Virus record (IMG/VR): IMGVR_UViG_3300020414_000004
Length of the DNA: 36,467 nucleotides
Reading direction: 5' to 3' (one strand)
Source of the DNA: a virus
The position numbers were made by a program, and so were the translations under genes. Shown here piece by piece: positions 16,184-34,220 of the stretch. The notes under the pieces were generated by a model. That model did no database searches. It worked only from the letters and a program-made list of their open reading frames with translations, and was not told where the DNA came from. Position 1 is the stretch's first letter; each line of letters opens with the position of its first letter.

Positions 16184-17041
16184 ATGGCGTGGAATTTAAT
16201 AAAAATGGGTAAAAGCATACACCACTTAATGACTACATATGGCGAGGGAAATGATCTTGAGCCAATGGAAAAAGACCTAACAGGCGAGAGCCGTGTGGAT
16301 CACGTTGTGTCTTTATATAGAGAAATGAATGTTCCGTTTGGAATAATGATGATGTTTAAAAATAGAGTTTCAGAAAACGGAAGACACATAATCTGGGGTA
16401 GAAAATGGAATGACCGAGAATATGTTGAAAAAACAGTAATACCAAAATTAATGGATTATGATTATTTATCATCATTGCCACCTAATACAGTAGGTGCTCA
16501 CTATTACAATCTAATAAAAGATTTTGGAATTGAAAAACTTTACAACCAAAGATTCAAAAAAGAGGAAAAAAGAGAGGGCGGGATTAATAATCTTTATAAT
16601 TCTTTTAGCGATGACATAAGAGAAAACACCTCCAGGCACTTATTGTTAAGTCACGATATTTGGCACGTTTTATTTAGATATGACACAACGCCAATGGGCG
16701 AGGCTATGATCCAAACAATAACGGCCAGAATATTTAATTTTTTCCCACCGCATTTAACAGGATTTTTTGGTACCTGGAAGATGGCACAAAAGACCGGGAG
16801 CAAACTGCCTTGGAAAGTTTGGAAAGAATGTCTAAAACTTTCAAAGGGCGTTAATAAAGAGTTGGCCTTATATAGTCCGATTGAATTTTTAGAACACGAC
16901 ATTCAAGAAGTAAGAGACAGATTTAATATATTTACACCTAAAGTCTACGCTGAATATGTTAAGTCTTTGCCAAAATTTTCTAGAATGGACACGATCCACC
17001 CTAATTATCAAGACAAAGTATGGAACTCAGAAATAATTTAA
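16184..17041 (+). CDS. Coq4-family (ubiquinone biosynthesis Coq4-like) metal-binding protein
   Basis: SHDIWHVLFRYDTTPMGEAM fits the Coq4 signature HDxxH-x11-E (compare eukaryotic HDxxHxLLGxxTNxLGE). Confidence 0.55.
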   Translation: MAWNLIKMGKSIHHLMTTYGEGNDLEPMEKDLTGESRVDHVVSLYREMNVPFGIMMMFKNRVSENGRHIIWGRKWNDREYVEKTVIPKLMDYDYLSSLPPNTVGAHYYNLIKDFGIEKLYNQRFKKEEKREGGINNLYNSFSDDIRENTSRHLLLSHDIWHVLFRYDTTPMGEAMIQTITARIFNFFPPHLTGFFGTWKMAQKTGSKLPWKVWKECLKLSKGVNKELALYSPIEFLEHDIQEVRDRFNIFTPKVYAEYVKSLPKFSRMDTIHPNYQDKVWNSEII

Positions 17042-17238
17042 AATGGAATTGGCCCATATTAACAAAAATCAAAAAGGTTTATAAAGAAAAGGGCCTGGCT
17101 AAAACTGTTTTATGGATCCTAGTTATATTTCTAGGAATAAAACTTGTGATCCTAAACGGAATTATTTTTATATTAAATAATGTTTTTGGCACTGCTTTTG
17201 AATATGCCCCAATATTAAGATTTATTTTCGGAGGTTAG
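17020..17238 (+). CDS. Small membrane protein (accessory cassette, member 3)
   Basis: 72 aa with two hydrophobic segments (TVLWILVIFLGIKLVILNGIIFILNNVF). Confidence 0.45.
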   Translation: MELRNNLKWNWPILTKIKKVYKEKGLAKTVLWILVIFLGIKLVILNGIIFILNNVFGTAFEYAPILRFIFGG

Positions 17239-17239
17239 A

Positions 17240-18757
17240 GTGCCATATATTTCAATTACACCTAAACCTGGCATAAAGAAAAATGGAACAGATTATGCAA
17301 ATAAAAATTCCTGGATTGATGGAAATTTAGTCCGTTTTGAAAATGGCTTTTTAGCAAATGTTGGGGGTTGGCGAAAATTAAAAGACACTCCAGTACAAGG
17401 CACACCGATTGGGGCCTATGCTTACTACACAAACACAAACAGACAAGTCCTGGCAATAGGTACCAGGGAGAAAGTTTATGTTAATTATGACAACCAATGG
17501 TATGACATCACACCGACTGGCTTTACCGGAGATGTTTCTAACTCTCCTCTTGGTTATGGGGCCTATAATTGGGGAGCCGAAGATTATGGCGATGCAAGAT
17601 CACAAAGTGGCCTGGCTTTTGGAACAAAGCCTTTTAGTTTTGCAAATTTTGGAGAAAACTTAATATTTGTTTGTGGATCTGATTCTAAAATTTATAAATG
17701 GCGTCCAGACAACGGATCTGGAACAACCCCTCCGACACCAGACTCACAAGCGGTACAATTAACAAACGCTCCCCTGGGATCCCAGGGCATATTAGTGACT
17801 AACGAGCGTCATATTTTTGCGTTTGGTAATACTAACAATCCAAGACAAATAAAATGGTCGTCCAGGGAAACAGATACAACCTGGGCCCCGGCTACAACAA
17901 ATACGGCCGGTGACTTAACAGTGACAAGTGGAGGTCTTATCCAGGGCGGCGTTAAATTTGGAGCCGATGTTTTAGTTTTTACAGATGTCGGTCTAAATAA
18001 AATTTATTACACCGGAGCTCCTTTTATTTATGGTATTACAGACGCCGGTCAAAATTGTAGGGCCGCAAGTATGCGAACAGTTGTTAATGCCGGAAACTTT
18101 GTAGCCTGGATGGGCGACAATTCTTTTTATTTATATTCGGGCCAGGTACAAAAAATACCTAGTGATGTCCACGACTTTGTTTTTGATAATATTAATTATC
18201 CTTATCGTGCGGCCGCTTGTGGTGGCCATAACCAATTATTTAACGAGATATGGTGGTTTTTCCCTAGTGGTCTTTCAAAACATCCTAATAAATATGTGAT
18301 TTGGAATTATATGGAGAAGACCTGGAGCATAGGAGAGCTTGACCGCTCGTTCTGGATTGACCAGGGTGTTTTCTCTTTTCCTATTAGTGGCGACTCCTCT
18401 GGAAACTTATATGAGCACGAAACTAATAGCATTCAAACATCGCCTAATAATACGGCCGTACCATTTTGTAAGTCTGGGCCCATACAAATTAGCCAGGGAG
18501 ATAATTTAGTCCAGGTTAATCAAATTGTCCCGGATAGCGATGCAACCAATTTACCAGGCGTCACTTTAGGCTTTAAGGGAAAAAATACTCCCCTGGGCCC
18601 AGAAACAGATTTTGGAAACTTTACTTTTGAAACAGATGGCTACACAGACGCTAGATTTACCGCCAGGCAAATAAATTTAGAAGTGACTGGCGATGCAAAC
18701 CAAGACTTTCAAGTTGGCGATATTAGGCTTGATGTAAAAGCTAGGGGGCGTCGTTAA
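17240..18757 (+). CDS. Virion structural protein, probable tail tubular/nozzle protein
   Basis: GTG start with SD ggagg. 505 aa, beta-rich and repeat-like. Located in the tail module. Confidence 0.55.
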   Translation: MPYISITPKPGIKKNGTDYANKNSWIDGNLVRFENGFLANVGGWRKLKDTPVQGTPIGAYAYYTNTNRQVLAIGTREKVYVNYDNQWYDITPTGFTGDVSNSPLGYGAYNWGAEDYGDARSQSGLAFGTKPFSFANFGENLIFVCGSDSKIYKWRPDNGSGTTPPTPDSQAVQLTNAPLGSQGILVTNERHIFAFGNTNNPRQIKWSSRETDTTWAPATTNTAGDLTVTSGGLIQGGVKFGADVLVFTDVGLNKIYYTGAPFIYGITDAGQNCRAASMRTVVNAGNFVAWMGDNSFYLYSGQVQKIPSDVHDFVFDNINYPYRAAACGGHNQLFNEIWWFFPSGLSKHPNKYVIWNYMEKTWSIGELDRSFWIDQGVFSFPISGDSSGNLYEHETNSIQTSPNNTAVPFCKSGPIQISQGDNLVQVNQIVPDSDATNLPGVTLGFKGKNTPLGPETDFGNFTFETDGYTDARFTARQINLEVTGDANQDFQVGDIRLDVKARGRR

Positions 18758-19401
18758 TGCCAGATTACGGAGATAAAGGCGGATTTCAAGGGAGTGGCCT
18801 GGGCGGCAATCCTGGAAACTCTGGAGCCGGTTATGGCTCTAATAAAAAAGGTACGCCATATTCAAAGCAGTTAGGCGAAGCAATAGCCAGGGCAAATATG
18901 AAAAACGCCCCGGATCCGGTGTCATATGTCACACAATCTGTTATCCAGGAAAGAGGCGGGTATACTCACGGATCAGTAAGTCCAGGCGATTTGGCCGGTA
19001 TGGCCGGAATGATGGCCCAGTCTAATAGTTTTGGCGGACAAAATAATAAAGATGTGCAACGAGCAATGGCCGACGCTTATTCCAGGGCCGGGCCTGGGGC
19101 CGGTCAAAGAGGCGTTTTAGGATCATACAATTTAGGTATGGGTATTAATCCAACCACAGATATGGGCCTTATAGATAGCCTCAAATATAACACCATTGAC
19201 CAACCTGGCTTTATGAATCAAGTAGCAAATATGGGTGTTGGCTTATTAGGAAATATGGTGGCTCCAGGACTAGGCACAGTAGTCGGCTTATTAAATAGAG
19301 ATAAAAGAGACCAACAAAAAAATATTAATATGAAAATGGCCAAGGTAGATAAGGATAAATTTAGCGGCCCAGATAGACAGGAGTTAATTTATGGCTCGTA
19401 G
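18757..19401 (+). CDS. Gly-rich virion protein, hypothetical
   Basis: 214 aa, ATGA-type coupling, G/N/M-rich. Confidence 0.6.
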   Translation: MPDYGDKGGFQGSGLGGNPGNSGAGYGSNKKGTPYSKQLGEAIARANMKNAPDPVSYVTQSVIQERGGYTHGSVSPGDLAGMAGMMAQSNSFGGQNNKDVQRAMADAYSRAGPGAGQRGVLGSYNLGMGINPTTDMGLIDSLKYNTIDQPGFMNQVANMGVGLLGNMVAPGLGTVVGLLNRDKRDQQKNINMKMAKVDKDKFSGPDRQELIYGS

Positions 19402-19618
19402 ATCATTAATTAGACCAGAGGAACAGTATAGCCAAACTTTTTTAAATTATTTGGTCGACCAAATTGAGGATATTACAGGCCTTACATTCACTAAAGGCGA
19501 AAGAATTGAAGCAAACGGCGTAGATAGTTCAGAAATCGTACTAGTTTCGCCAAATGGCACAAAGTATAAATTAGAGGTAGATAATAGTGGCAATATCAGC
19601 ACTAGCGTCGTCGTTTAA
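19391..19618 (+). CDS. Hypothetical small structural-module protein
   Basis: 75-aa ORF, overlapped start. Confidence 0.55.
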   Translation: MARRSLIRPEEQYSQTFLNYLVDQIEDITGLTFTKGERIEANGVDSSEIVLVSPNGTKYKLEVDNSGNISTSVVV

Positions 19619-19967
19619 TTACGACTGGCAAAGATGTCGAAAATATATTGTTAATGCCGTAGAGCATCAAGACCTCTATTCAATAGAAGATATAGAGGTT
19701 AAAATAGCAGACGGAACATTCCAATTCTGGCCAGGAATACAATCCGCATTCGTCACAGAAATAAGTCGTTTCCCACAAAAGACAGTTTTAAATTTATTGT
19801 TTTGTGGAGGAGACTACAAAGAGTTAGAGGCAATGCTTCCATACATTGAAGAGTTTGGTAAGCGTTGTGGGGCCACACAAATATTCGGAGGCGGACGTCC
19901 AGGGTGGACAAGAAAATTGAAACACCTGGGGTTTAAATCTGAACATCTAATTAGCAAGGATCTTTAA
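19587..19967 (+). CDS. Conserved hypothetical phage protein
   Basis: GTG start with SD gaggtag. Contains FWPGIQSAFVTE...FCGGDYKELEAMLPYIEEFGKRCGATQIFGGGRPGWTRKL. Confidence 0.55.
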   Translation: MAISALASSFNYDWQRCRKYIVNAVEHQDLYSIEDIEVKIADGTFQFWPGIQSAFVTEISRFPQKTVLNLLFCGGDYKELEAMLPYIEEFGKRCGATQIFGGGRPGWTRKLKHLGFKSEHLISKDL

Positions 19968-19969
19968 AA

Positions 19970-21286
19970 ATGAGTAAAGGAAAAACAGTACAATCAGCAA
20001 AAGTCGAAACACCTAAATATCAAGAGGACGCATATAAAGAGTTATATGCAATGGGCCGTAATGCGGCTAATCGACAATTTACACCATACACAGGACAAGC
20101 AGTAGCCGGGCAAAATGCGGCCGGTCAAGAGGCTTACAATACCTCTAGGGAAATGATGTCTGATGCTAATAGATTTGATCCAACGGCCGGACTTATGTCT
20201 AACATCGGTCAAGGCGGCCAGGTAGGCTCGGTAGGTTATAACGCTAATGTTGGCTCGGCCCAGGGGCAATTAGGAAACCTGGTAGACAGAGGCAATATTA
20301 GAGAAATGGGCCAACAAGAGATTTTAGGAAAAATTGGAAATTATTTAAATCCATACCAGGATATAGTCACAGACCAGGGCATAAGAGACCTAAATAGGTC
20401 AAGACTAAAACAATTAATGAGTGACCAGGACGCACAAATAGGCCGAGGTGCTTTTGGCGGATCCAGGGGAGCTCTTTTAGAAGCAGAAACAAATAAAAAT
20501 TATAATGAGTCAGTTGCGGATTTTGTTGCACAACAAAACCAACAAGCGTTTGACAGGGCCACACAATTAGCGTCCGCCGATATGGACAGACAATTAACGG
20601 CCGACACAGCGAATATGGGCCAAGATGCGGCCGTCGCAATGGCTAACCAGGGTGCTCTTAACCAGGCGGGAATGATTGAGCAAGACAGATTTAATAAATT
20701 AGCAGACCTTGGGTTTGCCGGGGCACAAATGGAACAGCAAAGAATGTTAGACCAGGCTAAATTTGACGATGCCAGGTTTGACAGAGATAGAGCTATTTAT
20801 GGCGATATCCTGGGGGCACAACAAGGGGCCGCAAACTTTGCATCACAACAAGGCTTATTAAACAGAGCTATTGATCAAGAACAACTAGACTTTGATAGAT
20901 CTGAATTTATGAGAAGAATTAATCAACCGGTCGAAAACCTTGGCATATTTAATAGTGCGGTTTCTGGGGTACCATTTATGGGAGCCCAAAGCACAACATC
21001 GCAAAAGAAAACAGGCTTGGGCGATGTTCTAGGAGCCGGGCTCCAGGTGGCTAGTCTTTTCTCTGATGTCAGATTAAAAGAAAATATTCAATATAAATAC
21101 ACAATGACCAAAGGCTACAAGGTCTACACTTGGGATTGGAATGATAAGGCTCAAGAAATTGGTATTAATAATAACAATTATCCGACTAGCGGTGTTATCG
21201 CCCAGGAAATTGAAAAAATTAATCCAGGGGCCGTTTTCCAAGATCAAGAAACAGGCTACCTGGTCGTTAATTACGAGAGGCTATAA
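19970..21286 (+). CDS. Q/N/G-rich virion protein with a C-terminal S74-type chaperone domain (second copy of this domain)
   Basis: FSDVRLKENIQYKY...SGVIAQEIEKINPGAVFQD...VVNYERL. Confidence 0.75.
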   Translation: MSKGKTVQSAKVETPKYQEDAYKELYAMGRNAANRQFTPYTGQAVAGQNAAGQEAYNTSREMMSDANRFDPTAGLMSNIGQGGQVGSVGYNANVGSAQGQLGNLVDRGNIREMGQQEILGKIGNYLNPYQDIVTDQGIRDLNRSRLKQLMSDQDAQIGRGAFGGSRGALLEAETNKNYNESVADFVAQQNQQAFDRATQLASADMDRQLTADTANMGQDAAVAMANQGALNQAGMIEQDRFNKLADLGFAGAQMEQQRMLDQAKFDDARFDRDRAIYGDILGAQQGAANFASQQGLLNRAIDQEQLDFDRSEFMRRINQPVENLGIFNSAVSGVPFMGAQSTTSQKKTGLGDVLGAGLQVASLFSDVRLKENIQYKYTMTKGYKVYTWDWNDKAQEIGINNNNYPTSGVIAQEIEKINPGAVFQDQETGYLVVNYERL

Positions 21287-22419: not shown

Positions 22420-24675
22420 GTGAAAATAAGAGTCCAGGGAAAAACTTATGAGGTCAGCGATGAGTTTAAAGACTTATCAAAAGCAGACCAACAAAAAGTT
22501 TTGCAAAATATCGTTAGCCAGGAAATAACCGGCCAACAGGCCAACACCAGGCGTCCGGAAGAGATAGGCAATATAAAAGGTTTGTCCAGGGCCGCTTTAG
22601 GCCAGGGCCTTTTATTTGGTTTTGGAGACGAGCTAGAAGCCGGGGTCAGAACGGGTTTTGGTTTGTTTGGCGATTATGGCGATAAGGTAAAAGATGTCCG
22701 TCAAGAAATTGCAGACTACCAGGCACTTAATCCTGGCAAAAGTATTTCAGCAGAAATAGGCGGAGCAGTTATACCAAGTGTCATCGCCGGTGTATTTACT
22801 GGCGGTACCGGTACTGCGGCCGGAGGTGCTGCAACAACGGCCCGAATAGCATCAAGGGCCCCAAGTATTGCCAGGCAATTTGGACAAGGGGCAAAAATAG
22901 GAGCCGGGTATGGAGGTCTATATGGCGTCGGTACAGGCCAAAGTGAAGACGGGGCCAATATAGGTCAGATTGCTTATGATCGTGCTATGAGCGGTCTAAA
23001 AGGTGCCGCAGTAGGTGGTACAGTTGGTGGCGTTATGCAACCGGCAATCGGTGGTGGTATTAAAGGTATTAATAAAGTCAGAGATATGGCTAACCAGGCC
23101 GGTATCCTGGGTGGCAAGTCAGCAGACGAGGCCGCCGAAAGATTTGCAAATAGAAAAATTCTCCAGGCTACGGATATGGACGGCACAAATTTGCAAGTCC
23201 AATACAATAACCTCAAGGCTCGAAGAGATGCTCTTATTAATAAGGCAAATGCTGAAAAGAAAATGTTTCCAGATGAGGTTTATGAAATAGACGCACAGAT
23301 GTCTAAATTAGCAGATGAGCTAAATATTAATCCAGGTGTCAAAGGCCTAGACGATGCCGCCGATGGCCTTAATAAAACTCTAGCAGACACAGGAGAAGCG
23401 GCCACAAGACTTGGCTATGCTTCACAAAGTATTACAAACCCGTCAAACACTAAGGTAGCGGACACCCTGGTAGGAAGACAATCAGACCAGGCAATGCGAA
23501 TTGTAAACAATACACAAAAAGCATTAAAAACGGATCCAGACAAAATAGGGATAAATTATATTGACGACCTGGCATCACAACAATCTATCCAGGCACGAGC
23601 TAATTATCCAGAGGCATATAATAAAACTATAAGTGTTGCTAAATTTGAGGACTTTTTTGGCAATAGGGCATATTCAAATTTATTGAATGATGCCGCTAAA
23701 AGAGCACAAAAAATTCTCCAGGCAGAGGGTAAAGATGTACCAGACCTGGCCGCAATATTAGCCGATAAAGGTAAAACTTATTTTGGATCATACAAAGATT
23801 TTTTAAACCAGGATTTATCGACTGAATTTTTCCACGCTCTTAAGATGGGTATGGACGATATTATTGATGCCGGGACAAAAGTTAATGCAATAGGTCAGAC
23901 TGAGGTCACTAAATATGCACAAAAAGTCATAAAAACTAAAAACGCTTTTGACAAAGTTATTAGAGACAATAACTCTTTATATGCAAAAGCAAATGATGCT
24001 TTTTCAGATAAGGCTAGACTCTTAAATGTTTTCAAAGATGGCACTAATGTTAACAAAATGGATATTAGGTCAATACAGAATAAGTTTGAAAAAATGAATC
24101 CTGGAGAAAAAGAAGCTTTTAAAAATGGTGTGGTTTCTCATTTTATAGAGTTAGCTGAAAAGTCAGCGTCTAGTAGAAATTTTGTGACACAAATTTTCGG
24201 CAATGAAAAAAATAAACAATTATTTAAAACGATTATGGATCCAAAAACCTATAAGCAATTTGAGGCATATATTAAAAAAGAGGTAGCGGCATCTAAAACC
24301 TTAAAAGATGTGTTGCAAGGCTCTCCGACTGCAACAAGACTCCAGGCTCAAAGAGAATTGGCCGAGGGTGGTGGCGAGGCTCTAGTACAAGCCGGGAACA
24401 GAGGCTTAACAGGAAACTTAATGTATTTTGGCGGCAAGGCTATAAATAGACTTGGCGGTGTTGACTCACAAAGGGCCTCCAGGATTGCTGATAAATTATT
24501 TGAAACAAACCCGTCACAACAAAGAGTTATTATTAATCAATTAGCAAAAGAAAATGAGGCAATGGCTAAAGAGGTCGCCAGGATCTTGCAACTTTCAAAT
24601 AAAGGGGCCGGTGTAGCCGGTGGCCCGTTTGCCGTTGGTGTCGTTTCGGATCCGAATAATCCCAATAGAAGATAG
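22420..24675 (+). CDS. Large internal virion/ejection protein (putative)
   Basis: GTG start with SD gaggaag. 751 aa with a Gly/Ala-rich hydrophobic region (residues about 100-215). Confidence 0.6.
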   Translation: MKIRVQGKTYEVSDEFKDLSKADQQKVLQNIVSQEITGQQANTRRPEEIGNIKGLSRAALGQGLLFGFGDELEAGVRTGFGLFGDYGDKVKDVRQEIADYQALNPGKSISAEIGGAVIPSVIAGVFTGGTGTAAGGAATTARIASRAPSIARQFGQGAKIGAGYGGLYGVGTGQSEDGANIGQIAYDRAMSGLKGAAVGGTVGGVMQPAIGGGIKGINKVRDMANQAGILGGKSADEAAERFANRKILQATDMDGTNLQVQYNNLKARRDALINKANAEKKMFPDEVYEIDAQMSKLADELNINPGVKGLDDAADGLNKTLADTGEAATRLGYASQSITNPSNTKVADTLVGRQSDQAMRIVNNTQKALKTDPDKIGINYIDDLASQQSIQARANYPEAYNKTISVAKFEDFFGNRAYSNLLNDAAKRAQKILQAEGKDVPDLAAILADKGKTYFGSYKDFLNQDLSTEFFHALKMGMDDIIDAGTKVNAIGQTEVTKYAQKVIKTKNAFDKVIRDNNSLYAKANDAFSDKARLLNVFKDGTNVNKMDIRSIQNKFEKMNPGEKEAFKNGVVSHFIELAEKSASSRNFVTQIFGNEKNKQLFKTIMDPKTYKQFEAYIKKEVAASKTLKDVLQGSPTATRLQAQRELAEGGGEALVQAGNRGLTGNLMYFGGKAINRLGGVDSQRASRIADKLFETNPSQQRVIINQLAKENEAMAKEVARILQLSNKGAGVAGGPFAVGVVSDPNNPNRR

Positions 24676-25118
24676 TGCCAAGAGATACCGAGCGGCTAGG
24701 CCGTAGCGGAGAATATATAGTAGCCGCATATTTGTCGCTTTATAGCGACACAGTTTCCATAATTCCACACGGATCACACGCCGACATAATTGCCGAGTTT
24801 GAAGATCAGTTATTAAAATTCCAGGTTAAGTCTGTCAGAATGCAGAGGCGTAAATATAAGACAAAACAAAACAGAAAAGATAAGGCCAGGAGTGGTTGGC
24901 TTATGGATATGAGGCGTAGCGGGAACACCCTGGATAGAAATTATCGTGGTAGTGTTGATATTTTTGCTTTATATATAGTCCCCCTGGGGAAGCTATTATT
25001 CCATCCGGCTATTGATGGAATAAGCAAAACATTTAGTGACCGATTCGTTGCCAATGTAGATTCTGAGGAAATGCTTTACAATTCTGTTAAACAGGCCCTC
25101 AACAAAGGTAATGAGTGA
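24675..25118 (+). CDS. Small PD-(D/E)XK nuclease-fold protein next to attP
   Basis: GRSGEYIVAAYLS...HADIIAEFEDQLLKFQVKS gives a G-x-x-GE ... D ... (Q/E)-V-K layout. GTG start. Confidence 0.5.
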   Translation: MPRDTERLGRSGEYIVAAYLSLYSDTVSIIPHGSHADIIAEFEDQLLKFQVKSVRMQRRKYKTKQNRKDKARSGWLMDMRRSGNTLDRNYRGSVDIFALYIVPLGKLLFHPAIDGISKTFSDRFVANVDSEEMLYNSVKQALNKGNE

Positions 25119-25158
25119 CTTTGTGATCACAAAAATTTTTCGCAGTTTTCCAGGCTTC

Positions 25159-25198
25159 GGAGAGATGGGTGAGTGGTTGAAACCGGCTCCCTGCTAAG
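25159..25198 (+). other. 5' half of a tRNA-Ser(GCU) gene, candidate attP core
   Basis: GGAGAGA-TG-GGT-GAGTGGTTGAA-ACC-G-GCTCC-CTGCTAA-G: acceptor 5' strand, class-II D-arm, 5' strand of the anticodon stem, and anticodon loop (GCT at 25193-25195). Similarity stops after the loop. There is no T-arm and no 3' acceptor strand. Confidence 0.7.
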
Positions 25199-25348
25199 AA
25201 AAAGATTTAATCGGTTTCCGTACTAGATTTCCCGCCATTTATGAGCAAGTGTCCTGGTTATGGCTTGGCCCATAACTATTGCTAACCCTACCAAGTTATG
25301 CCTGGTTATTGGCAAAAGCCTCAACATAAACTCAACAAGGAGAGAGTG

Positions 25349-25534
25349 ATGAGTCAAATTAAAAAGCTACACTTAACGCAAAGCGAGATAGATATGCTTA
25401 GTAATATTCTAAACCGCTTATATGAACGCAATAAGTGCCAGGGCCGAAAGGATTTAAACTGGCTTAACTTTAATCATACGAGAAAGTATGTAAAGCAAGT
25501 CGCCCAGGAGAAACCTTTAAAACTTATCGATTAG
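25349..25534 (+). CDS. Hypothetical 61-aa protein (moron unit)
   Basis: Strong SD aaggagag before ATG 25349. The track ORF 25298 start is less likely. Confidence 0.5.
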   Translation: MSQIKKLHLTQSEIDMLSNILNRLYERNKCQGRKDLNWLNFNHTRKYVKQVAQEKPLKLID

Positions 25535-25610
25535 GTTGAGTAGACTTCAACAAGGGAAGTCGAGCTATAATACGCCTTTATTAACCATTTTTCATTTAGA
25601 GGAGTTTATT

Positions 25611-26057
25611 ATGAAAAATATACACAAAAAGGAGGCCGAGCTAATTAGGCAACTGTTAAAAGCAGAATTACCGGCCATTTTAAAAAAACATAACCTTAAC
25701 TTTGAGCTAGGCAACGCCGTTTATGACGGATCCTCGGTCAAATTTAATGGCTTTAGACTTTCAACTGCCGATGCCAAAACACCGGCTATGAAAGAACTTG
25801 ATAGGGAAAATGAATTTAGAAAACAAATAAATTCAGCGACCATATTAAGAACGGGCATCAATTATAAAGACGGCAACAAAACTTATCACTTGGTTGGCTA
25901 TAAACCAAGGGCAAGAAAAAAGCCTTATATAATTGAATGCTTGGAAAGCGGCGACCACTATGTTGTCACAGAAAAATATGCCGAGGAAATGTTTGGCGGC
26001 CCTAACCCGGATTTTGATAAATCTAAGTTAGATTATCAGCCAAAAGTAGTAGGCTAA
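25611..26057 (+). CDS. Hypothetical 148-aa protein (moron unit)
   Basis: SD gaggag before ATG 25611 (MKNIHKKEAE...), followed by a strong terminator. Confidence 0.55.
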   Translation: MKNIHKKEAELIRQLLKAELPAILKKHNLNFELGNAVYDGSSVKFNGFRLSTADAKTPAMKELDRENEFRKQINSATILRTGINYKDGNKTYHLVGYKPRARKKPYIIECLESGDHYVVTEKYAEEMFGGPNPDFDKSKLDYQPKVVG

Positions 26058-26067
26058 CCCAAAATTA

Positions 26068-26096
26068 AGGCCCGGCAATGTCCGGGCCTTTTTTTT
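26068..26096 (+). terminator. Rho-independent terminator
   Basis: aggcccgg-caatgt-ccgggcct followed by T8. Confidence 0.85.
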
Positions 26097-26120
26097 CGCA
26101 TAAAAACAGAGGAGTTAAAA

Positions 26121-27194
26121 ATGCAAACTAGAAAAACAGATAACAAAAATACTAACCTGGTTATGATCACACGCCATTTTAAGGACGATATTTCATTGCC
26201 AACTTATACAACCTATTATGCAAAACTGTATGAAAAGGGCCGCAAAAACCCCAGGTTAAAAAAAATAGGAATATCAACCGAGCAAGTTAGCCTGGCGGTT
26301 ATGCGGGAACGATGCCGCTTGTACATTGAGGAACACGGCCGTTTCGGTAGGTCAAGCCACACACTTGACCAGGCTTTTTATGAAATCTATTTAGGCGAAC
26401 TAAAAAAGAAATCAGCTAAAACAATCGACGACATAAAAAGAAATTATGAAAAAGATATAAAGCCTCATTTTGGCAAAATGCTTATGAGCGATATTGATTC
26501 GCCAATGATATTGTCCTGGTTTAATAAATTAACCGAACGAACTGAGGGCGGGGCCAACCATTGTTTGTCAATTTTAAAAGCTATGTTTACTTTATGTATG
26601 GCCCTAGGGGTTTGTAAGCACAACCCTTGTTTGCCTATTAAGAAGAACCCGGACAAGGAAAGAACTAGGTCATTTACCCAGGGGGAACTAATTGCTTTTA
26701 GGGCCGCATTAAAAGAAGCTAAGTCCAGGTCAATTTATGCCTGGAGTTTTATTATGCTAATGTTTTTGACTGGGGCCCGAAAAGGCGAACTAGCCAGGGC
26801 AACTTGGGGCGACATAAAAGGCGAAAGCATAGTTTTAACGGATCACAAAACCAAACATAAAACCGGCAAGGATAGATATATTTATTTAAACGACCTTGCA
26901 AAAGCTGTAATAAATAATTTACCAGTCGGCCAGGATCACGAAACAATTTTAAAAATCAAGGATCCTAGAACTGTTTGGGAAACTATGATGCGAAAAGCAA
27001 ATATAAAAGATTTTAGAATGCACGACTTAAGGCACAATTTTGCCTCGGCCGGTGTAAATAGTGGCTTAGATATTATTAGAACGGCCGCATTAACGGGCCA
27101 TATGAGTTTGAATTCTATGAAAAGGTATCAAAGGCCTAATATTGAAAGGAAGTTAAAAGACACAAAAATAATTGAAAATCAATTAACCAATTAA
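26121..27194 (+). CDS. int: Tyrosine recombinase (phage integrase)
   Basis: LTGARKGEL (Arg), HDLRHNFAS (His-x-x-Arg), GHMSLNSMKRY (His ... Tyr). Confidence 0.9.
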   Translation: MQTRKTDNKNTNLVMITRHFKDDISLPTYTTYYAKLYEKGRKNPRLKKIGISTEQVSLAVMRERCRLYIEEHGRFGRSSHTLDQAFYEIYLGELKKKSAKTIDDIKRNYEKDIKPHFGKMLMSDIDSPMILSWFNKLTERTEGGANHCLSILKAMFTLCMALGVCKHNPCLPIKKNPDKERTRSFTQGELIAFRAALKEAKSRSIYAWSFIMLMFLTGARKGELARATWGDIKGESIVLTDHKTKHKTGKDRYIYLNDLAKAVINNLPVGQDHETILKIKDPRTVWETMMRKANIKDFRMHDLRHNFASAGVNSGLDIIRTAALTGHMSLNSMKRYQRPNIERKLKDTKIIENQLTN

Positions 27195-27449
27195 TTTGTT
27201 TCCCTGGCTATCTCTTTTATATTTAGTTTCTAATTCTAAATCGATATAGTGCTTGGCTTTTAATAAGTCTTGCACTTTATCGTCCTCGTTGCCTTTATCC
27301 CGGCAAATATATTTCACAACATTACCTAGGCAATAACTAAGTTTGTTGGCCAAAATAAATTTAATTGGTTGGATCCCTAAGACTTTGTAATGGCCCCCGC
27401 CTACTTGAACATCACTCGCAGAAATTTTTTTTTTCGACAATTTTTCCAT
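27183..27449 (-). CDS. DUF3310-family protein
   Basis: GGGHYKVLGIQPIKF...LGNVVKYICRDKG...DLLKAKHYIDLEL. Convergent with int, overlapping it by 12 nt. Confidence 0.7.
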   Translation of the reverse strand: MEKLSKKKISASDVQVGGGHYKVLGIQPIKFILANKLSYCLGNVVKYICRDKGNEDDKVQDLLKAKHYIDLELETKYKRDSQGNKLIG

Positions 27450-27631
27450 CCTGGCTAATTATTTTCATTGATCAATTATAAGATAGTACGGAATTTAATA
27501 ACAGTTAGTGCAAACATTATCCGCAATTTTTTTTAATTAATTTCTGTCGTCTACTTGCTTTTTGAATCCGACATAGGTCATAATTTGGCCTCATAAGGTT
27601 TCACATAACTAGCGATGGAAAAAATTATAGG
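27450..27631. promoter_or_regulatory. Divergent intergenic control region (leftward DUF3310 gene, rightward early replication operon)
   Basis: 182-nt AT-rich non-coding region. Contains ttgctt-N18-cataat and the 10-mer tagtacggaa (27484-27493). Confidence 0.4.
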
Positions 27632-27829
27632 ATGGAAAGCTCTATAAAATTATTAACAACTAAAGAGGTCGCCGCCTTTTTAAAGATCAGTCCAGTGACT
27701 TTAGAAATGTGGAGAGCCGAAAACAAAGGCCCAAAATTTATTAAAGTGGGCCGCTATGTGAGATATAGCACGACTGATTTAGCAGAATATGTGAGGAGAC
27801 AAACCCGTGGAACTGATCCAGGCCAATAG
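27632..27829 (+). CDS. Excisionase/AlpA-family HTH DNA-binding protein
   Basis: LLTTKEVAAFLKISPVTLEMWRAENKGPKFIKVGRYVRYSTTDLAEYV. Confidence 0.75.
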   Translation: MESSIKLLTTKEVAAFLKISPVTLEMWRAENKGPKFIKVGRYVRYSTTDLAEYVRRQTRGTDPGQ

Positions 27830-27842
27830 GATTTATGTAGTT

Positions 27843-28586
27843 ATGCCAAGTAAACACGCAATGTGCTCCCCGTCCGCTTTCAATCGTTGGGCCAACTGCC
27901 CGGCATCAGCAAAACAAAACCAAATTTTTAGAGGCGAGTCGTCATATGCGGCCGTTGAGGGAACTGTCTGCCACGAAATTGCAGAAATGGGTTTAAAAGA
28001 ATTAGTCCAGGGAATTAGCCTGGAGGATTATTGGTTAGGCCGTGACGTAGAGGTCGATAATATAAATGTAAAAGTCACACAGACTTTAATCGACACCGCC
28101 AAAGTCCATATAGAATATTGTAGAGAGCGAGAGAGAGAGCTAGAGGGCCGTCTCCTTATTGAAGAGCAAGTCGAAATGAATGAGATTAGCGACGCAGTTT
28201 GGGGCACGAGCGACACCTTAATACTTTCAAAAAAGGAATTTAACACGATTGAGATCGTGGATTTTAAGGCCGGAAAGTGGCCTGTCAAAGTGGACAATAA
28301 TCCGCAACTCAAAATATATGGATTAGGTGCCCTTAGTCGTTATGGCAACGAAAATACTAAGATCATAATGACTATTGTCCAACCAAGGACGCCTGGCAAA
28401 AAACCTAAAATAAATTCTGCCGAGACAACGGCCGAGGCTTTAGTCGATTGGGGTTATTCAACCTTAAAAGACGCCGTCGAGCGTTGCCTGGAGGATGAAC
28501 CCGTTTACAAGGCGGGGGATTGGTGTCGTTTTTGTGCTTATAAAGAACATTGCGACGAATTCAATAACACTTTTACTAAGGAGTAA
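27843..28586 (+). CDS. Cas4/RecB-like PD-(D/E)XK exonuclease (DUF2800-like)
   Basis: MPSKHAMCSPSAFNRWANCP, VDFKAGKWPV, NPQLKIYGL, and the C-terminal Cys cluster CRFCAYKEHC. The track start GTG 27807 is less likely. Confidence 0.75.
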   Translation: MPSKHAMCSPSAFNRWANCPASAKQNQIFRGESSYAAVEGTVCHEIAEMGLKELVQGISLEDYWLGRDVEVDNINVKVTQTLIDTAKVHIEYCRERERELEGRLLIEEQVEMNEISDAVWGTSDTLILSKKEFNTIEIVDFKAGKWPVKVDNNPQLKIYGLGALSRYGNENTKIIMTIVQPRTPGKKPKINSAETTAEALVDWGYSTLKDAVERCLEDEPVYKAGDWCRFCAYKEHCDEFNNTFTKE

Positions 28587-28588
28587 AT

Positions 28589-28936
28589 ATGAGTGGAAAT
28601 ACCGATAAGCCGAAGTTCTCGGCCTCCTGGGATGAGCCTTGCTTAACCAGGACAGAGGATGACGGATCCAAAACTGAATGGTATGAGAGAGACCTTAGTG
28701 GGCCCACAATGCAAATTATGGCCGACCTACTTTCTTATATTGATCAGTCAAGTAAGCTGATGTCACAGTTTGAGAATGCTCAAGTCATTGTGCAACATAT
28801 GGCATCGTTAAATAAAAACCAGGAACTACTATTTGAAAAATTAGTAGCTAACAACCAGGGCAAGAAAATTGTCGAAGGTGCCGGGACTATGCAAGTAGTG
28901 TCAAAAATTAATGGGGGTAAAAATGAGCCTAAGTGA
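28589..28936 (+). CDS. Hypothetical protein in the recombination module
   Basis: 115-aa ORF. Confidence 0.55.
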   Translation: MSGNTDKPKFSASWDEPCLTRTEDDGSKTEWYERDLSGPTMQIMADLLSYIDQSSKLMSQFENAQVIVQHMASLNKNQELLFEKLVANNQGKKIVEGAGTMQVVSKINGGKNEPK

Positions 28937-29687
28937 TATTAGAAAAAAATCAAAACTCAAGCCTCCAAGATTACTGATCTACGGAACTGCCGGAGTTGGT
29001 AAAACTAGTTTTGGGGCCTCAATGGATAAAAGTATATTTTTACTTGCCGAGGATGGCCTGGGAACTATTCAAGCAGAACACTTTCCGGTGGCGAAATCTT
29101 GGGAAGAGTTTAAAGGACGCCTGGAGACATTAATAAAAGAGGATCACGAATTTAAATCCTTAATTATTGATTCAGTTGATTGGTTAGAGCCTCTTATTTG
29201 GAAATATGTTTGTGATAAAAATAAGTGGGCCAACATTGACTCGCCTGGATATGGCCGAGGTTTCACGGCCGCTTTAGATGTGTGGCGTGAATATACCGAC
29301 TTGCTTTCAATATTAAGAGAGCAAAAAGGTATGGTCATATGTCAAATTGCTCATTGCATTATTAAGCGACACGAGGATCCGGAGACGGAAGCATATGACA
29401 GGTACACAATAAAATTAAATCAAAAGGCCTCGGACTTGCTCCAGGAGAATAGCGATTGCGTTTTATTTATGTCCTATAAAAAAGGTACAGTCAAAACTCA
29501 AGGCAAAGGCGGTAGCAATGTCAAAGTGGTAAGCGGCGACAGAGTTATTTATACCGAGGAAAGAGCAAGTCACTTGGCAAAAAATAGGTATCAATTACCT
29601 TATGAAATGCCGTTTGATTGGCAAAAAATTCGTGCCGAAATTGCCTCTAATGCAAAACCTAAAGAGTCGGAAGCTAATGCAGACTAA
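28923..29687 (+). CDS. Sak4-like RecA-fold ATPase (AAA_24-like) single-strand annealing/recombination protein
   Basis: Walker A LLIYGTAGVGKTSF and Walker B-like LIIDSVDWLE. Likely start is ATG 28923. Confidence 0.7.
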   Translation: MSLSDIRKKSKLKPPRLLIYGTAGVGKTSFGASMDKSIFLLAEDGLGTIQAEHFPVAKSWEEFKGRLETLIKEDHEFKSLIIDSVDWLEPLIWKYVCDKNKWANIDSPGYGRGFTAALDVWREYTDLLSILREQKGMVICQIAHCIIKRHEDPETEAYDRYTIKLNQKASDLLQENSDCVLFMSYKKGTVKTQGKGGSNVKVVSGDRVIYTEERASHLAKNRYQLPYEMPFDWQKIRAEIASNAKPKESEANAD

Positions 29688-29931
29688 CGATGATTTAGAA
29701 ATGGCCAGGCAAGACCAGGCTATTGAGTTTGCAAAAGAGCAAGACTTAGAAATCATAAAAGCAAAAGTGCAAGAGGCTTATAGGCTTCTTGTGCCTTTTG
29801 TTGAAAAGTATGGCGGACAGTTTCAAACAGACTTTCCGCACGGCTTGATTGATGAGTCTCAAGATTTATTAACCAAAATCCGAGAGTTTGTAAATTTCAT
29901 AGAGGACTATGAAAATTATGATCTTGGATAA
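29677..29931 (+). CDS. Hypothetical 84-aa protein
   Basis: ATG 29677 (MQTNDDLEMARQ...) lies in the 29602 ORF frame. Confidence 0.5.
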   Translation: MQTNDDLEMARQDQAIEFAKEQDLEIIKAKVQEAYRLLVPFVEKYGGQFQTDFPHGLIDESQDLLTKIREFVNFIEDYENYDLG

Positions 29932-29948
29932 TTTATAAGGAGAAGAAA

Positions 29949-30482
29949 ATGGAAACACCATTTAACTTTGACGATGGCGAACAACCGGCCGCTAGTAATG
30001 GCGGCGGTAAATTGCCGGAGGGCCGTTATAACTTTGAATTTGTTAGAGTGGCCGGGGCCGATGATAATGCCGAGAATGGTATTGTGACCGGTAAAAATGA
30101 TTGGAAGGCCTTAAAATTAATTTTTAAGATGATCAATAGCAACATCGATAAAGATTTATTTTTTAGCACTACATTCACAACAGACTACGATCCGACGGCA
30201 GTTGCCAAGGACGGCAAGACTAATAAGCGTGAAATGCTTTTGGATATGAGCAAGGCAAATTATAAAGCCTTATGTCATTTTGCCGGGGCGGATTTGAAAA
30301 ACACCGACTCGCTAGTAGGTAGGAAAGTTTCTTGCTTATGTGTGCAAGGAGACGGAGGCTACCTGGAACTTGATCCTGGCCCAAGAGGAAATAATTGGGA
30401 CGCTTTTACAGAGGAAAATAAAAGCGTGGACAAGCCTGGTAGCGGTGTCCTGGATGTGGATGATGATGACATTCCTTTTTAG
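29949..30482 (+). CDS. SSB-like single-stranded DNA-binding protein (DUF669-like) with a canonical acidic tail
   Basis: The C-terminus ...LDVDDDDIPF matches the bacterial SSB tip motif DDDIPF. Synteny with the Sak4 and Cas4-like genes supports the call. Confidence 0.65.
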   Translation: METPFNFDDGEQPAASNGGGKLPEGRYNFEFVRVAGADDNAENGIVTGKNDWKALKLIFKMINSNIDKDLFFSTTFTTDYDPTAVAKDGKTNKREMLLDMSKANYKALCHFAGADLKNTDSLVGRKVSCLCVQGDGGYLELDPGPRGNNWDAFTEENKSVDKPGSGVLDVDDDDIPF

Positions 30483-30484
30483 GA

Positions 30485-30850
30485 GTGGCATTTCCTTACA
30501 CAAAATTTCCCTCGCTCTGCGGTCATTGTTTGGCCCCAGGGCGAGGATTTTATTTAGAATTTAATAATAAATATTATGCGGGATGTTCAATGAAACACCT
30601 GGACGAATTAAGAGAGGCCCTTGCGGCCGGAAAAAAATTACAAATATCGGCGGCGGGGAATCCGGAGGCCATCGATGTTGCAATGACTCAAATAAAAGAA
30701 AAATATAAAGAATACTCAGACAAGGCCGGAACTTTTGTAATGCACGAGTGGGCCCAGGAAGATAGAAAACAGTTTTTTAAATTCTTTATTGCTTATTATT
30801 TAAGTTATGAAACGGAGATTGCTAAAAATGGAATGCCGCCAGGGGACTAA
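30485..30850 (+). CDS. Hypothetical protein
   Basis: GTG 30485 or ATG 30590 are possible starts. The start is uncertain. Confidence 0.45.
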   Translation: MAFPYTKFPSLCGHCLAPGRGFYLEFNNKYYAGCSMKHLDELREALAAGKKLQISAAGNPEAIDVAMTQIKEKYKEYSDKAGTFVMHEWAQEDRKQFFKFFIAYYLSYETEIAKNGMPPGD

Positions 30851-30852
30851 AA

Positions 30853-32697
30853 GTGGTAGATATAACGAAGATATGGGGCGACTTAGATCAAGACGAGAAT
30901 TTTGTTTATAAAGACGAAAACAAAACTATTGCTGATTTAATTACGCAAATGAATAAAGACGGCCTTGATGTCGTCACAATCGATACAAGTGGATCCGTAC
31001 AAAGAGTTAAAGTTAGAGCAACGCCTCAAACTAGGCCCGATACTGGCCAAGAAAAAAGTGGTTGGTACTTTTTTTATGACAATGGTAATGGAAACTTTTT
31101 TTGCAATTATGGTAATTGGCGGACAGGAGAGTCTTATAAGTTTGCATCAAAGCAATTTAATGAGTTTGATCCAGGCGAACAGATAAAAATAAAACAAGAG
31201 TTAGAGCGACGCCTGGAAGAAGCACAAAGGGAAAGGGAGGCTAATCAAAAAGAGGTGGCCTTACAATGCCAGGAGAAATGGGAAAGACTGAGCGAGGTCA
31301 CTGATCATAAGTACCTGGATAATAAAAAAATAAAAAATTATGGGGCCCGGTTAGCAAATGAAAAATTAGTAGTGCCTTTATATTCCTCTAATAATGGGCC
31401 ACAAATAACAAGCCTTCAATATATAGACAAAGACGGAAATAAAAGATTTACGAGCGGCGGCCTTGTCAAAGGATCCATATTTAATGTTGGCTTTAGTTTT
31501 AATGAGTGGGACTCTATAAAAAAATTAGTGATTGTTGAGGGTTATGCTACCGCTATGAGCGTTTATATGGCCACTAACTTGCCGACTGTTTGTGTTTTTA
31601 GTGCAAATTTTGCCTTAGAGGCGGTTTCTAATATTAGAAAATATTGCAATGCTGAAATAATTTTGGCCCTGGATAATGACAAAAGTGGCGTTGGCCAAAG
31701 CCAGGCCGACAAAGTTGCGGCGGCCGTTCATAATTGTAGAGTTAAAGTGCCCCTGGAACTTGGCTATGACTTTAATGATGTCCACATTGAGCAAGGACTA
31801 GAAGAGGTCAAAAGACAATTAACAATTAGTGCATTTAATATTAAGGCCAACACTTTAAGAAGCCTAGACTCTAACCCGCCGCAAAGAGAGTGGTTAGTTG
31901 AGGGCCTAATTGAGTCAAGCAAGAACGGAGTTATTGCAGCAATCGGAGGCGTTGGAAAAAGTTTTATATGCCTGGACTTATGTCATAGCGTTGCAAAGGG
32001 CAACGGCTTTTTTATGGGTAAGCCAATAAATAAAAAAGGCAATGCAATATATATAACGGCCGAGGACGATTTAGCGGAAACGCATAGGCGAATAAATGCG
32101 TTGGATCCTGGCGGCGATAGATTTAGCTCTTTATATGATGTCTATATAATAAGTGTTCCAGAATTAGCGAGGCCATTAACACTAATAAAGTCGGACAGTG
32201 CTAATGGCCTCCACATAACAAAACAAGCATATGACCTAGTAGATAGCCTGGAGTCTATTCCTAACCTGGAATTAGTTGTCCTGGATCCTATCCAGGCGTT
32301 TGTTGGGGCCCCGACAAATGATAATGAGGTGGGCCAGTTATATAGCCAATTATGTCAAATGATCAGTAGCAAATATAATTGTTGCACATTGAGCGTACAC
32401 CATATGTCAAAAGCCGGGTTGGTTAGCATTGATGACCCAATGGCGGCGAGGCAATCAATCAGAGGGGCCTCGGCCTTAGTGGACTCGACTAGGTTTTGTT
32501 TGGCCTTATTTCTTTGCGACGAAGATAGCGGCCGGGAAATATGTCTTAAATATGGCGTTGAATATGACCGGCTAAAAGTAATTAGGGCGGCCGTTGTTAA
32601 GGCTAATAGTGACGCTGATATGAGCGTTAAAACTATGATCAGACGTGAAAATGTCCTGGAAATGGTCAATAAAGAAGAGGATATAAAATGGAATTAG
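30853..32697 (+). CDS. Bifunctional Toprim primase / RepA-DnaB-like (AAA_25-type) helicase
   Basis: Toprim VIVEGYATAMSV...LDNDKSGVGQ, Walker A AAIGGVGKSF and Walker B VVLDPIQAF. Confidence 0.8.
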   Translation: MVDITKIWGDLDQDENFVYKDENKTIADLITQMNKDGLDVVTIDTSGSVQRVKVRATPQTRPDTGQEKSGWYFFYDNGNGNFFCNYGNWRTGESYKFASKQFNEFDPGEQIKIKQELERRLEEAQREREANQKEVALQCQEKWERLSEVTDHKYLDNKKIKNYGARLANEKLVVPLYSSNNGPQITSLQYIDKDGNKRFTSGGLVKGSIFNVGFSFNEWDSIKKLVIVEGYATAMSVYMATNLPTVCVFSANFALEAVSNIRKYCNAEIILALDNDKSGVGQSQADKVAAAVHNCRVKVPLELGYDFNDVHIEQGLEEVKRQLTISAFNIKANTLRSLDSNPPQREWLVEGLIESSKNGVIAAIGGVGKSFICLDLCHSVAKGNGFFMGKPINKKGNAIYITAEDDLAETHRRINALDPGGDRFSSLYDVYIISVPELARPLTLIKSDSANGLHITKQAYDLVDSLESIPNLELVVLDPIQAFVGAPTNDNEVGQLYSQLCQMISSKYNCCTLSVHHMSKAGLVSIDDPMAARQSIRGASALVDSTRFCLALFLCDEDSGREICLKYGVEYDRLKVIRAAVVKANSDADMSVKTMIRRENVLEMVNKEEDIKWN

Positions 32698-33040
32698 CGA
32701 CCATATGTGTACCCACAAAGGCCCTCGTTTGCGACCATAGGGGTACCCACATAGACATATATAGGAACATATATATTGGCACGGCCCTGGAGGGGCCGGG
32801 CCAATTCAGTAGGAGTGTGAATTGATTGTGGATAATGCGGCCAGGGGGAAGGCGAGTGCCAGGGAAAAAGATTGTTATATCTTTGAGTTAGGCGGAAGCC
32901 TTACCAGGGGAAGACAGCGTATAAAAATTAGGTACAGTTTTTAATAGGACAATTAGTACTATTAAAAGTTGGTAATAATCGAATACAGTTTAAAGGAACA
33001 TTAAACAAACATTTAATAAACAGAAAAGGAGGAAACTTAA
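32697..33040. promoter_or_regulatory. Candidate replication origin / regulatory non-coding region
   Basis: 21-bp direct repeats at 32697-32717 and 32731-32751 (19/21 identical), an AT-rich tract at 32752-32777, a 12-bp-stem hairpin at 32776-32804, and three CCAGGG(G)AA copies at 32841, 32859 and 32904. Confidence 0.5.
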
Positions 33041-33121
33041 ATGTGCAATTTAATAAAAGATGTAGATTTATATAAGGCTCGTCAATGGGGCGTTATGATA
33101 AACGGGATGATGGGCCCGTGA
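33041..33121 (+). CDS. 26-aa ORF with a strong SD (possible leader peptide)
   Basis: aaaggagg lies 7 nt before the ATG. Sequence: MCNLIKDVDLYKARQWGVMINGMMGP. Confidence 0.3.
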   Translation: MCNLIKDVDLYKARQWGVMINGMMGP

Positions 33122-33492
33122 ATGTAGGTCTAAAGATGCTTGAGTCGATTGATTACAGTTTGTGTCACGAAGACTCACCCGAACATAGATTTTATACTCA
33201 GTCTATGTTGCACAATATGATTTGCAATTATTTATTTTTAAACAAGGACGTTAACCTGGAGAGAATTTGCCGACATATACCAAAGCGTATCGGTGGCCGC
33301 ACGACTATTTATGAAGTGCTTACCCAGGGTTTAGGATCCGGTTTATTTAATAAGCAAAGTGACGACCAGGATAAAAGATTAAGAATTTATACCCTGGCAG
33401 ACGGGTTATGGCATCATATGGAAAGGTATTGGCTTAAGCCTTTTGAGGATACTGGGGAAGAAGATGAAAGGTTATTATCGAAGAAAAAGTAA
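33085..33492 (+). CDS. Hypothetical protein
   Basis: 135-aa ORF. The real start may be ATG 33136 (MLESIDY...). Confidence 0.55.
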   Translation: MGRYDKRDDGPVNVGLKMLESIDYSLCHEDSPEHRFYTQSMLHNMICNYLFLNKDVNLERICRHIPKRIGGRTTIYEVLTQGLGSGLFNKQSDDQDKRLRIYTLADGLWHHMERYWLKPFEDTGEEDERLLSKKK

Positions 33493-33931: not shown

Positions 33932-34139
33932 GAAGAGTTTTTTAGAAAGCATAAGCGATACTTTTATTGGCTTATGTATTAACTTTCCCCTGGGGTTTAC
34001 TGTCCTGGTAATAATGACCTGGTTTACAAGCAATCCTTTATATATTAGCGGGGCCCAGACCATAGTCTTGACAATTACTGCAATTATAAGGCGGTACCTA
34101 ACAAGAGAGTTCTTTCGGATCCGTGTAAATGCAGACTAA
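33924..34139 (+). CDS. Small two-TM membrane protein
   Basis: FIGLCINFPLGFTVLVIMTWF and ISGAQTIVLTITAIIRRY. Confidence 0.5.
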   Translation: MNKKSFLESISDTFIGLCINFPLGFTVLVIMTWFTSNPLYISGAQTIVLTITAIIRRYLTREFFRIRVNAD

Positions 34140-34220
34140 TGATGTTATGATCATAAAAGATTTGGAGCCTGGACACACACACTCCCCTTAATTCTCCCAA
34201 AAAGGTCTAGGCTCCACCAA

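Follow-up and report, generated by a model that had tools for sequence, protein, structure and literature searches.

An exact 5' half of SAR11 tRNA-Ser(GCU) as candidate attP core of an uncultured marine phage

A short intergenic region in the genome of a marine phage raises the question of why it should contain the front half of a bacterial serine tRNA gene, cut off at the anticodon loop and followed by a tyrosine integrase gene on the same strand. An earlier note, made from the letters of the DNA, had read this fragment as a candidate attP site of unusual polarity and, as a less likely alternative, as an expressed tRNA-half mimic. Our comparisons with host genomes, related phages and the wider integrase family lead us to consider it very probable that positions 25159-25198 represent the attP core of a temperate marine phage that infects SAR11 and targets tRNA-Ser(GCU).

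A SAR11 tRNA-Ser(GCU) half in a free phage genome

The window, i.e. the whole stretch of 36,467 nt that was analysed (IMG/VR record IMGVR_UViG_3300020414_000004), is a complete phage genome in its free form. Its positions 1-77 and 36391-36467 are identical, which is the signature of a circular assembly and gives a genome of about 36.39 kb, i.e. a 36.4-kb marine phage, with long ORFs that lie almost all on the plus strand. The stretch is present in sequencing runs of nine studies, all such runs being marine metagenomes, and several IMG/VR contigs match the phage genome at 92-100% identity. Among deposited phages there is no nucleotide match to positions 24600-27300, which include the core, and the portal protein is at most 43% identical to that of any deposited phage (36% to HTVC106P). 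The features on which the following argument draws are, in the order of their positions:

24675-25118, plus strand: gene for a PD-(D/E)XK-like nuclease (Pfam PF11645 at E 3.6e-5, which does not reach the curated cut-off; PHROG 5018)
25119-25348, no strand assigned: intergenic region of 230 nt with the candidate attP, between the PD-(D/E)XK gene (ends at 25118) and the next ORF (starts at 25349)
25132-25151, plus strand: 20-nt block AAAATTTTTCGCAGTTTTCC, ending 7 nt before the tRNA +1
25159-25198, plus strand: candidate attP core, exact SAR11 tRNA-Ser(GCU) 5' half from +1 to 1 base past the anticodon loop
25191-25197, plus strand: anticodon loop CTGCTAA, putative strand-exchange (overlap) region; host identity ends 1 base later
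25253-25261, plus strand: CCTGGTTAT, copy 1, exact, candidate arm-type site; kept in the IMG/VR relatives L004 and L005
25257-25276, plus strand: hairpin gttatgg-cttggc-ccataac, read from the sequence
25301-25309, plus strand: CCTGGTTAT, copy 2, exact, candidate arm-type site; absent from L004 and L005
25349-25534, plus strand: 61-aa ORF, the first gene downstream of the core; no family match (Pfam, PHROG)
25611-26057, plus strand: 148-aa ORF; no family match (Pfam, PHROG)
26067-26096, plus strand: intrinsic terminator separating the pair of small ORFs from int (9-bp stem with 7 G-C pairs, T run)
26121-27194, plus strand: tyrosine integrase gene, int, 357 aa (PF00589, E 1e-17; PF22022; PF14659; PHROG 1, E 1e-49)
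26156-26164, plus strand: CCTGGTTAT, copy 3, exact; inside the 5' end of int
27632-27829, plus strand: HTH_17 protein, candidate excisionase (Pfam PF12728, E 5e-12; PHROG 66 and other excisionase families)

The 40 nt from 25159 to 25198 consist, in this order, of the acceptor 5' strand, UG, the class-II D arm (GGT / GAGTGGTTGAA / ACC), G, the 5' strand of the anticodon stem (GCTCC), the anticodon loop (CTGCTAA) and a final G. When a 30-nt sub-pattern of this core was searched for in one genome per species across about 185,000 species (GTDB), it matched 40 contigs, every one of them from Pelagibacteraceae or Pelagibacterales and none from any other taxon. Each of the 40 contigs has an intact tRNA-Ser(GCU) gene whose 5' half is the matching part, with 40 out of 40 nt identical, which bears out the assignment made in the earlier note; in some host lineages identity comprises 41-42 nt and extends back to 25157. 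Against whole SAR11 genomes the core gives E ~1e-13, and the best background match obtained with positions 1-20000 and 24000-36467 of the window is no longer than 24 nt (E ~1e-3). Conversely, BLAST of 29 SAR11 tRNAs against the whole window returned only positions 1-40 of tRNA-Ser(GCU) (E 3e-18), all other matches being 12 nt or shorter. In the one SAR11 genome checked (G002), tRNA-Ser(GCU) is a single-copy gene.

The end of this identity is just as sharp as its beginning. It breaks after 25198, where the host continues with GAGTTG and the phage with AAAAAG, and an alignment of the next 92 nt with the 3' half of the host tRNA scored 6, compared to 6.9 +/- 1.4 for shuffled sequences, i.e. no residual similarity was detected and the fragment indeed stops after the anticodon loop without any 3' half. 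In line with this, ARAGORN, run as the earlier note had advised, found no tRNA gene in the window, and Rfam yielded no tRNA match there at E<=10. Matches to the Rfam families mir-367 and RAGATH-32 were at chance level and were dismissed.

The core and int are both on the plus strand and 922 nt apart, the distance having been put at about 0.9 kb before. The encoded Int protein carries R220, H301, R304, H327 and Y336, corresponding to the R..HxxR..Y catalytic residues, which are invariant in 16 homologues. With the host being taken as SAR11 (Pelagibacteraceae), an assignment derived from the att match alone, the G+C content of the phage (40.3% over the whole window) is set against a mean of 32.4% in the SAR11 loci around tRNA-Ser (L007-L046), a difference that is uncommonly large for a phage and the host attributed to it.

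The attachment region and its integrase family

In six related contigs, positions 25163-25402 are invariant and positions 25123-25162 contain a single variable site, whereas in the flanks some 1-4 sites per 40 nt are variable. Upstream of the core, the block AAAATTTTTCGCAGTTTTCC occurs identically in the relative L104 (2510-2530), which has an Int 46% identical to that of the window; there the block is located 7-8 nt upstream of a tRNA-Arg 5' half, in otherwise unrelated flanks, and a 148-aa ORF is found at the position that matches the nuclease gene of the window. Looser, GCNG-T-rich motifs are seen at equal distance from +1 in other relatives with 5' fragments. By its conservation and placement, the block is a candidate for a phage-supplied promoter or a protein-binding site. 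A promoter scan found no sigma-70 consensus upstream of the fragment, and comparing the phage-side upstream motifs with the upstream regions of host tRNA genes revealed no clear common promoter.

Downstream of the core, the short repeats and the hairpin that the earlier note had pointed out are present, with CCTGGTTAT starting at 25253 and 25301 and, in addition, at 26156. These aside, the 36.5-kb window has no exact copy of the repeat, and the three share the plus strand and fall within 0.9 kb. The hairpin at 25257-25276 is not followed by a T run and was not called by the terminator scan; that the repeats or the hairpin serve as arm-type or accessory sites seems plausible. Other short motifs were seen in this area, namely a palindrome, TGTGATCACA (25122-25131), directly upstream of the 20-nt block, TTATGATCACA (26160-26170), which recurs at the 5' end of int beside the third CCTGGTTAT, and related ATCACAC motifs 3' of the tRNA fragment in many relatives with Pro or Glu fragments. 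All of these may possibly be protein-binding sites.

The relatives L004 and L005 encode Int proteins 97-98% identical to that of the window. In the regions that correspond to window positions 25108-25323 (L004, 3770-3920; L005, 3530-3680), they lack the tRNA-Ser fragment, the 20-nt block and the second copy of CCTGGTTAT, and of the att region they retain only a 41-nt block (25221-25261). Their nuclease gene is 69% identical to that of the window. A SAR11-identical core is absent from the 10.8-kb L004 locus, and the tRNA-Ser fragment is absent from the sequenced parts of both records. The fragment thus appears to be dispensable for lytic growth, with Int and core not being strictly linked, and given these differences the att region is, on comparison of these genomes, a mosaic hot spot.

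Homologues of the window's Int with 27-72% identity are common in marine viral contigs, the closest being P0003 (72%) and P0004 (55%). We compared the 29 SAR11 tRNAs with 81 loci that have such a homologous Int. In 62 of the 81 loci a tRNA fragment lies upstream of int on the same strand, 80-950 nt away, and the 19 fragment-free loci yielded no other tRNA half in a profile search. Of these 62 fragments, 59 are 5' fragments and three are 3' fragments; a whole tRNA at the position of the fragment was seen in none of 82 loci. The 5' fragments, with lengths from 27 to about 42 nt, fall into three groups by their end points: those of tRNA-Ser-GCU (three loci), Arg-TCT (one locus) and Glu-UUC (14 loci) end at the anticodon loop or 1 base past it, a Lys-UUU fragment (one locus) continues through the 3' strand of the anticodon stem, and the Pro fragments (40 loci) end after the D arm.

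The three 3' fragments belong to tRNA-Asp(GUC) and comprise its positions 32/33-77 with 100% identity to SAR11 (L105, 2796-2841; L107, 2784-2828; L116, 2784-2828). Each precedes a same-strand int gene by 160-170 nt, and the corresponding Int proteins are 44-45% identical to that of the window. In a tree of Int sequences, the window groups with the locus carrying the Arg 5' fragment, and the Asp 3' loci fall in the sister clade of this group. Judged by sequence, both polarities occur within one Int family, with the anticodon loop mostly being the common boundary.

Fragment type and Int type do not always go together. L173 (2780-2870) has an Int of the clade with Glu fragments and yet a tRNA-Pro 5' fragment, which sits between the same conserved flanks as in L161 (2770-2860), i.e. 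GATTTCTGGT upstream and ATCACACARTTTCTTGAC downstream. The comparison of L173 and L161 looks like a swap of an att-core cassette on one backbone.

At L006 (1953-1994), a tRNA-Lys(UUU) 5' half that includes the 3' strand of the anticodon stem is followed after some 45 nt by a 427-aa integrase ORF, whose product is 35% identical to the window's Int. With its higher G+C content and only 86-96% identity to SAR11 tRNAs, L006 probably comes from a phage with a host other than SAR11.

Proposed integration and alternative explanations

Taken as an attP core, positions 25159-25198 would be recombined by Int (26121-27194) with their identical counterpart in the tRNA-Ser(GCU) gene of the host. Strand exchange would most likely take place in the anticodon loop, where we place the crossover because this is the boundary common to most fragments of both polarities in the Int family, and the phage would bring in the part of the tRNA gene to the left of the crossover. 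The integrated order would then start with host upstream DNA including the promoter, followed by the displaced 5' half and by phage DNA from 25199 onwards, i.e. the two small ORFs, the terminator, int and, across the 77-bp overlap, the virion genes and the nuclease gene (24675-25118), which would be the last phage plus-strand gene before the rebuilt tRNA. It would end with phage DNA up to 25158, a rebuilt, sequence-identical tRNA-Ser gene and host downstream DNA. The rebuilt tRNA-Ser would have to rely on transcription signals on the phage side. At the level of sequence, joint A is predicted to consist of phage 25140-25158, the core and host GAGTTGTGCGG, and joint B of the host upstream flank, the core and phage AAAAAGATTTAATCGG.

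What is directly observed is the identity and its limits, the host clade that shares it, the free form of the phage, where and on which strand the core lies with respect to int, and the fact that relatives and a verified pelagiphage show a corresponding layout. These observations and the analogy give good, though indirect, support to the attP reading: identity to the host is exact from +1 and breaks off sharply at the anticodon loop, the fragment lies between genes and, as in other members of the family, upstream of int on the same strand, with a candidate excisionase gene nearby, the noncoding region stays constant in six contigs that differ elsewhere, and the geometry is that of the pelagiphage HTVC028P (see below). 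A start at +1 together with an end at the anticodon loop is what would be expected of a site that rebuilds the gene on one side of the crossover. From this we infer that integration probably occurs, with its crossover most likely in the loop, and that the rebuilt tRNA would be transcribed from signals on the phage side.

Sequences in the integrated form were searched for in several data sets. The hybrid of phage left side, core and host 3' half had no match in viral and metagenome contigs. The pattern of core plus phage right side matched four metagenome contigs, all four in attP form, and the core alone matched, among viral contigs, only two relatives that were already known. In 60 SAR11-family genomes no close homologue of Int was found, the matches being XerC/D-like proteins (~28%) and one integrase with 31% identity (G016), and among 401 Pelagibacterales genomes there was again no close homologue and a single family-level match, next to tmRNA. 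No attL or attR was found in four marine runs, where the Logan contigs of both phage and host stop inside the 40-nt core and thus cannot bridge the two sides; that they end there is due to the core being common to abundant SAR11 DNA. In the marine runs X17 and X19 (run shares of ~0.5), both flanks of the core are covered at ~95% identity. SAR11 assemblies seldom contain prophages (10.1101/410191), and the missing attL and attR are therefore weak evidence. Further points against the proposal are the two near-identical relatives that lack the fragment, the failure of the promoter scan to predict a sigma-70-like promoter that could drive the rebuilt tRNA, and the difference in G+C content between the phage and the host loci.

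Within the Pelagibacterales, a different type of target may be in use at L179 (genome G200, contig 19), where the one family-level match from the 401 genomes is located directly downstream of a tmRNA gene with the tag ANESYALAA; this is probably a tmRNA-targeting island.

Alternatively, the fragment could be a non-functional scar, i.e. host DNA picked up by aberrant excision or illegitimate recombination, with the real attP located elsewhere or integration having been lost. That the near-identical phages L004 and L005 do without the fragment, that L173 pairs a Glu-clade Int with a Pro fragment, meaning that fragments move between backbones, and that no hybrid junction turned up in viral or metagenome contigs could all be understood in this way. 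A scar would be expected to decay and to carry an arbitrary piece of host flank, however, whereas the core matches in 40 of 40 positions and extends precisely from +1 to the anticodon loop. Moreover, the region is invariant in six contigs, no further host-identical stretch was found in the searched window, and 62 of 81 loci of the Int family are arranged in the same way. We thus consider a scar improbable.

Less probable still, and highly improbable, is an expressed tRNA-half-like RNA of ~40 nt in place of a recombination site, whether it acts as a decoy for an anticodon nuclease, as the earlier note had offered as its alternative, or as a regulator. The fragment's end at the anticodon loop, which is the point of cleavage by anticodon nucleases, and its exact match to the host tRNA sequence are properties that such an RNA should have. 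Prediction scans, however, found no promoter before and no terminator after the fragment, and no RNA run contains the stretch. Furthermore, the fragments in relatives vary in length (27 to ~42 nt), derive from five different tRNAs and in some cases are 3' fragments, and yet all of them lie beside int, as would be expected of att sites but not of a single function as RNA. The decoy proposal is therefore left unsupported. Least credible of all is a remnant of a phage-encoded whole tRNA-Ser gene that lost its 3' half, since, even though some pelagiphages have whole tRNA genes (10.1101/410191), there is no residual 3'-half similarity, the perfect identity with its sharp edge is unlike decay, and a whole tRNA was found at this place in none of 82 loci.

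Polarity in known systems and its possible meaning

If the fragment is the attP core, it supplies the 5' rather than the 3' part of the target gene. The earlier note was right in stating that attP sites in tRNA genes generally carry the 3' portion: the Islander database lists 3760 islands with a 3' fragment and 159 with a 5' fragment (159/3919, about 4%; PMC4383910), and islands with 5' tDNA fragments are called 'considerably less frequent' in PMC6563490. For displaced 5' tDNA fragments, PMC1635311 and PMC6563490 cite Zhao and Williams (2002, J Bacteriol 184:859). In the Islander 5'-fragment islands, as proposed for the window, the front portion of the tRNA gene comes from the element; these islands are integrated and defined by attL and attR, whereas the window represents a free phage with attP only. 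By the general rule, then, the polarity is unusual, just as had been claimed. This does not hold for pelagiphages, nor for the Int family studied here with its 59 of 62 fragments of the 5' type.

Among pelagiphages, the closest parallel in geometry is HTVC028P, a HTVC010P-type phage, in which a 40-bp core corresponds to the 5' end of tRNA-Asn; attL and attR were verified by PCR, and the host tRNA-Asn gene is restored by the phage copy upon integration (Du et al. 2021, PMC8477408). In the HTVC028P record, we located the core at 10386-10424 on the minus strand. It begins at the tRNA +1, reaches as far as the loop CTGTTAA and precedes int, which is on the same strand, by about 220 nt. HTVC028P and the window thus share an intergenic core of 39-40 bp that comprises a SAR11 tRNA from +1 to the anticodon loop and is placed upstream of int on the same strand. 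They differ in the target (tRNA-Asn versus tRNA-Ser(GCU)), in the backbone of the phage, and in the distance between core and int, which is 0.22 kb in HTVC028P and 0.92 kb in the window, with two ORFs and a terminator in between; also, integration is PCR-verified for HTVC028P, whereas for the window it is deduced. Their Int proteins have no detectable similarity in BLASTP (E 0.73), and the front-half layout is therefore common to separate Int lineages of SAR11 phages.

Cores of 11-46 bp that overlap the 5' end or the middle of tRNA genes have also been described for HTVC019P-type pelagiphages (Zhao et al., 10.1101/410191). For these, integration into tRNA-Cys, tRNA-Leu and tRNA-Arg was verified by sequencing, PCR and GOS hybrids, and the 5' part provided by the phage complements the host tRNA gene, although in several cases the resulting tRNA is altered or unrepaired and the phage brings a whole tRNA gene as a spare (10.1101/410191). 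They resemble the window's phage in being linked to SAR11, in having a tyrosine integrase and in a core that overlaps the 5' end of a tRNA. Unlike the window, they are T7-like, with attP located between int and an RNA polymerase gene, and while several of them leave altered or unrepaired tRNAs behind, the 5'-half copy in the window is perfect. With an Int E value of 0.73 against HTVC028P, a portal protein with at most 43% identity and no nucleotide match, the phage falls outside both the HTVC010P-type and the HTVC019P-type lineages.

The opposite, classical polarity can be seen, as a control, in the SAR11 genome G016, where a 6.6-kb island lies downstream of tRNA-Lys(UUU) (contig 35; L069, 13134-19826) and is bounded by a perfect 45-nt direct repeat of the 3' part of tRNA-Lys, from the loop CTTTTAA to CCA. 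Like the window, this island has a tyrosine integrase (31% identical to the window's) downstream of the tRNA on the same strand, in G016 directly so, and a boundary at the anticodon loop; in contrast to the window, the duplicated half is the 3' half. Since the duplicated piece is the 3' part, the rebuilt gene stays under the control of the host promoter in this case.

Could the 5' polarity have a function of its own? A joint reading, which we regard as rather doubtful and put forward as speculation, would be that it is a wiring device and that, linked to this, tRNA 5' fragments are exchangeable cassettes. Integration would place the strong host tRNA-Ser promoter and the displaced 5' half directly upstream of the ORFs at 25349-26057, which are closed off before int by the terminator at 26067-26096. 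These ORFs could then be switched on only in the integrated state and might constitute a lysogen-specific immunity or conversion cassette. The rebuilt tRNA would be transcribed from the conserved 20-nt block (25132-25151), acting as a promoter brought in by the phage. At the level of the family, 5' fragments would be swapped between conserved arms in this large and uncultured group of Int proteins, and, if true, this would mean that homology of the core determines the target more than the sequence of Int does.

Overall, front-half polarity is rare in general and already documented and verified in pelagiphages, and the known picture of integration at tRNA sites is unchanged by our data. What they add is tRNA-Ser(GCU) as a target, which had no report as a pelagiphage target in the searchable literature and no match in deposited phages, as well as the phage lineage and the tally across the Int family. 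An uncultured and complete marine phage, which probably is temperate, can be assigned to SAR11 by its att match. Our results are also relevant to island-finding software, which mostly expects 3' fragments. By the family survey, marine phage integrases of a widespread group would have front-half att sites as their norm and not as an oddity, and this bears on how the tRNA genes of SAR11 may stay working after phage integration.
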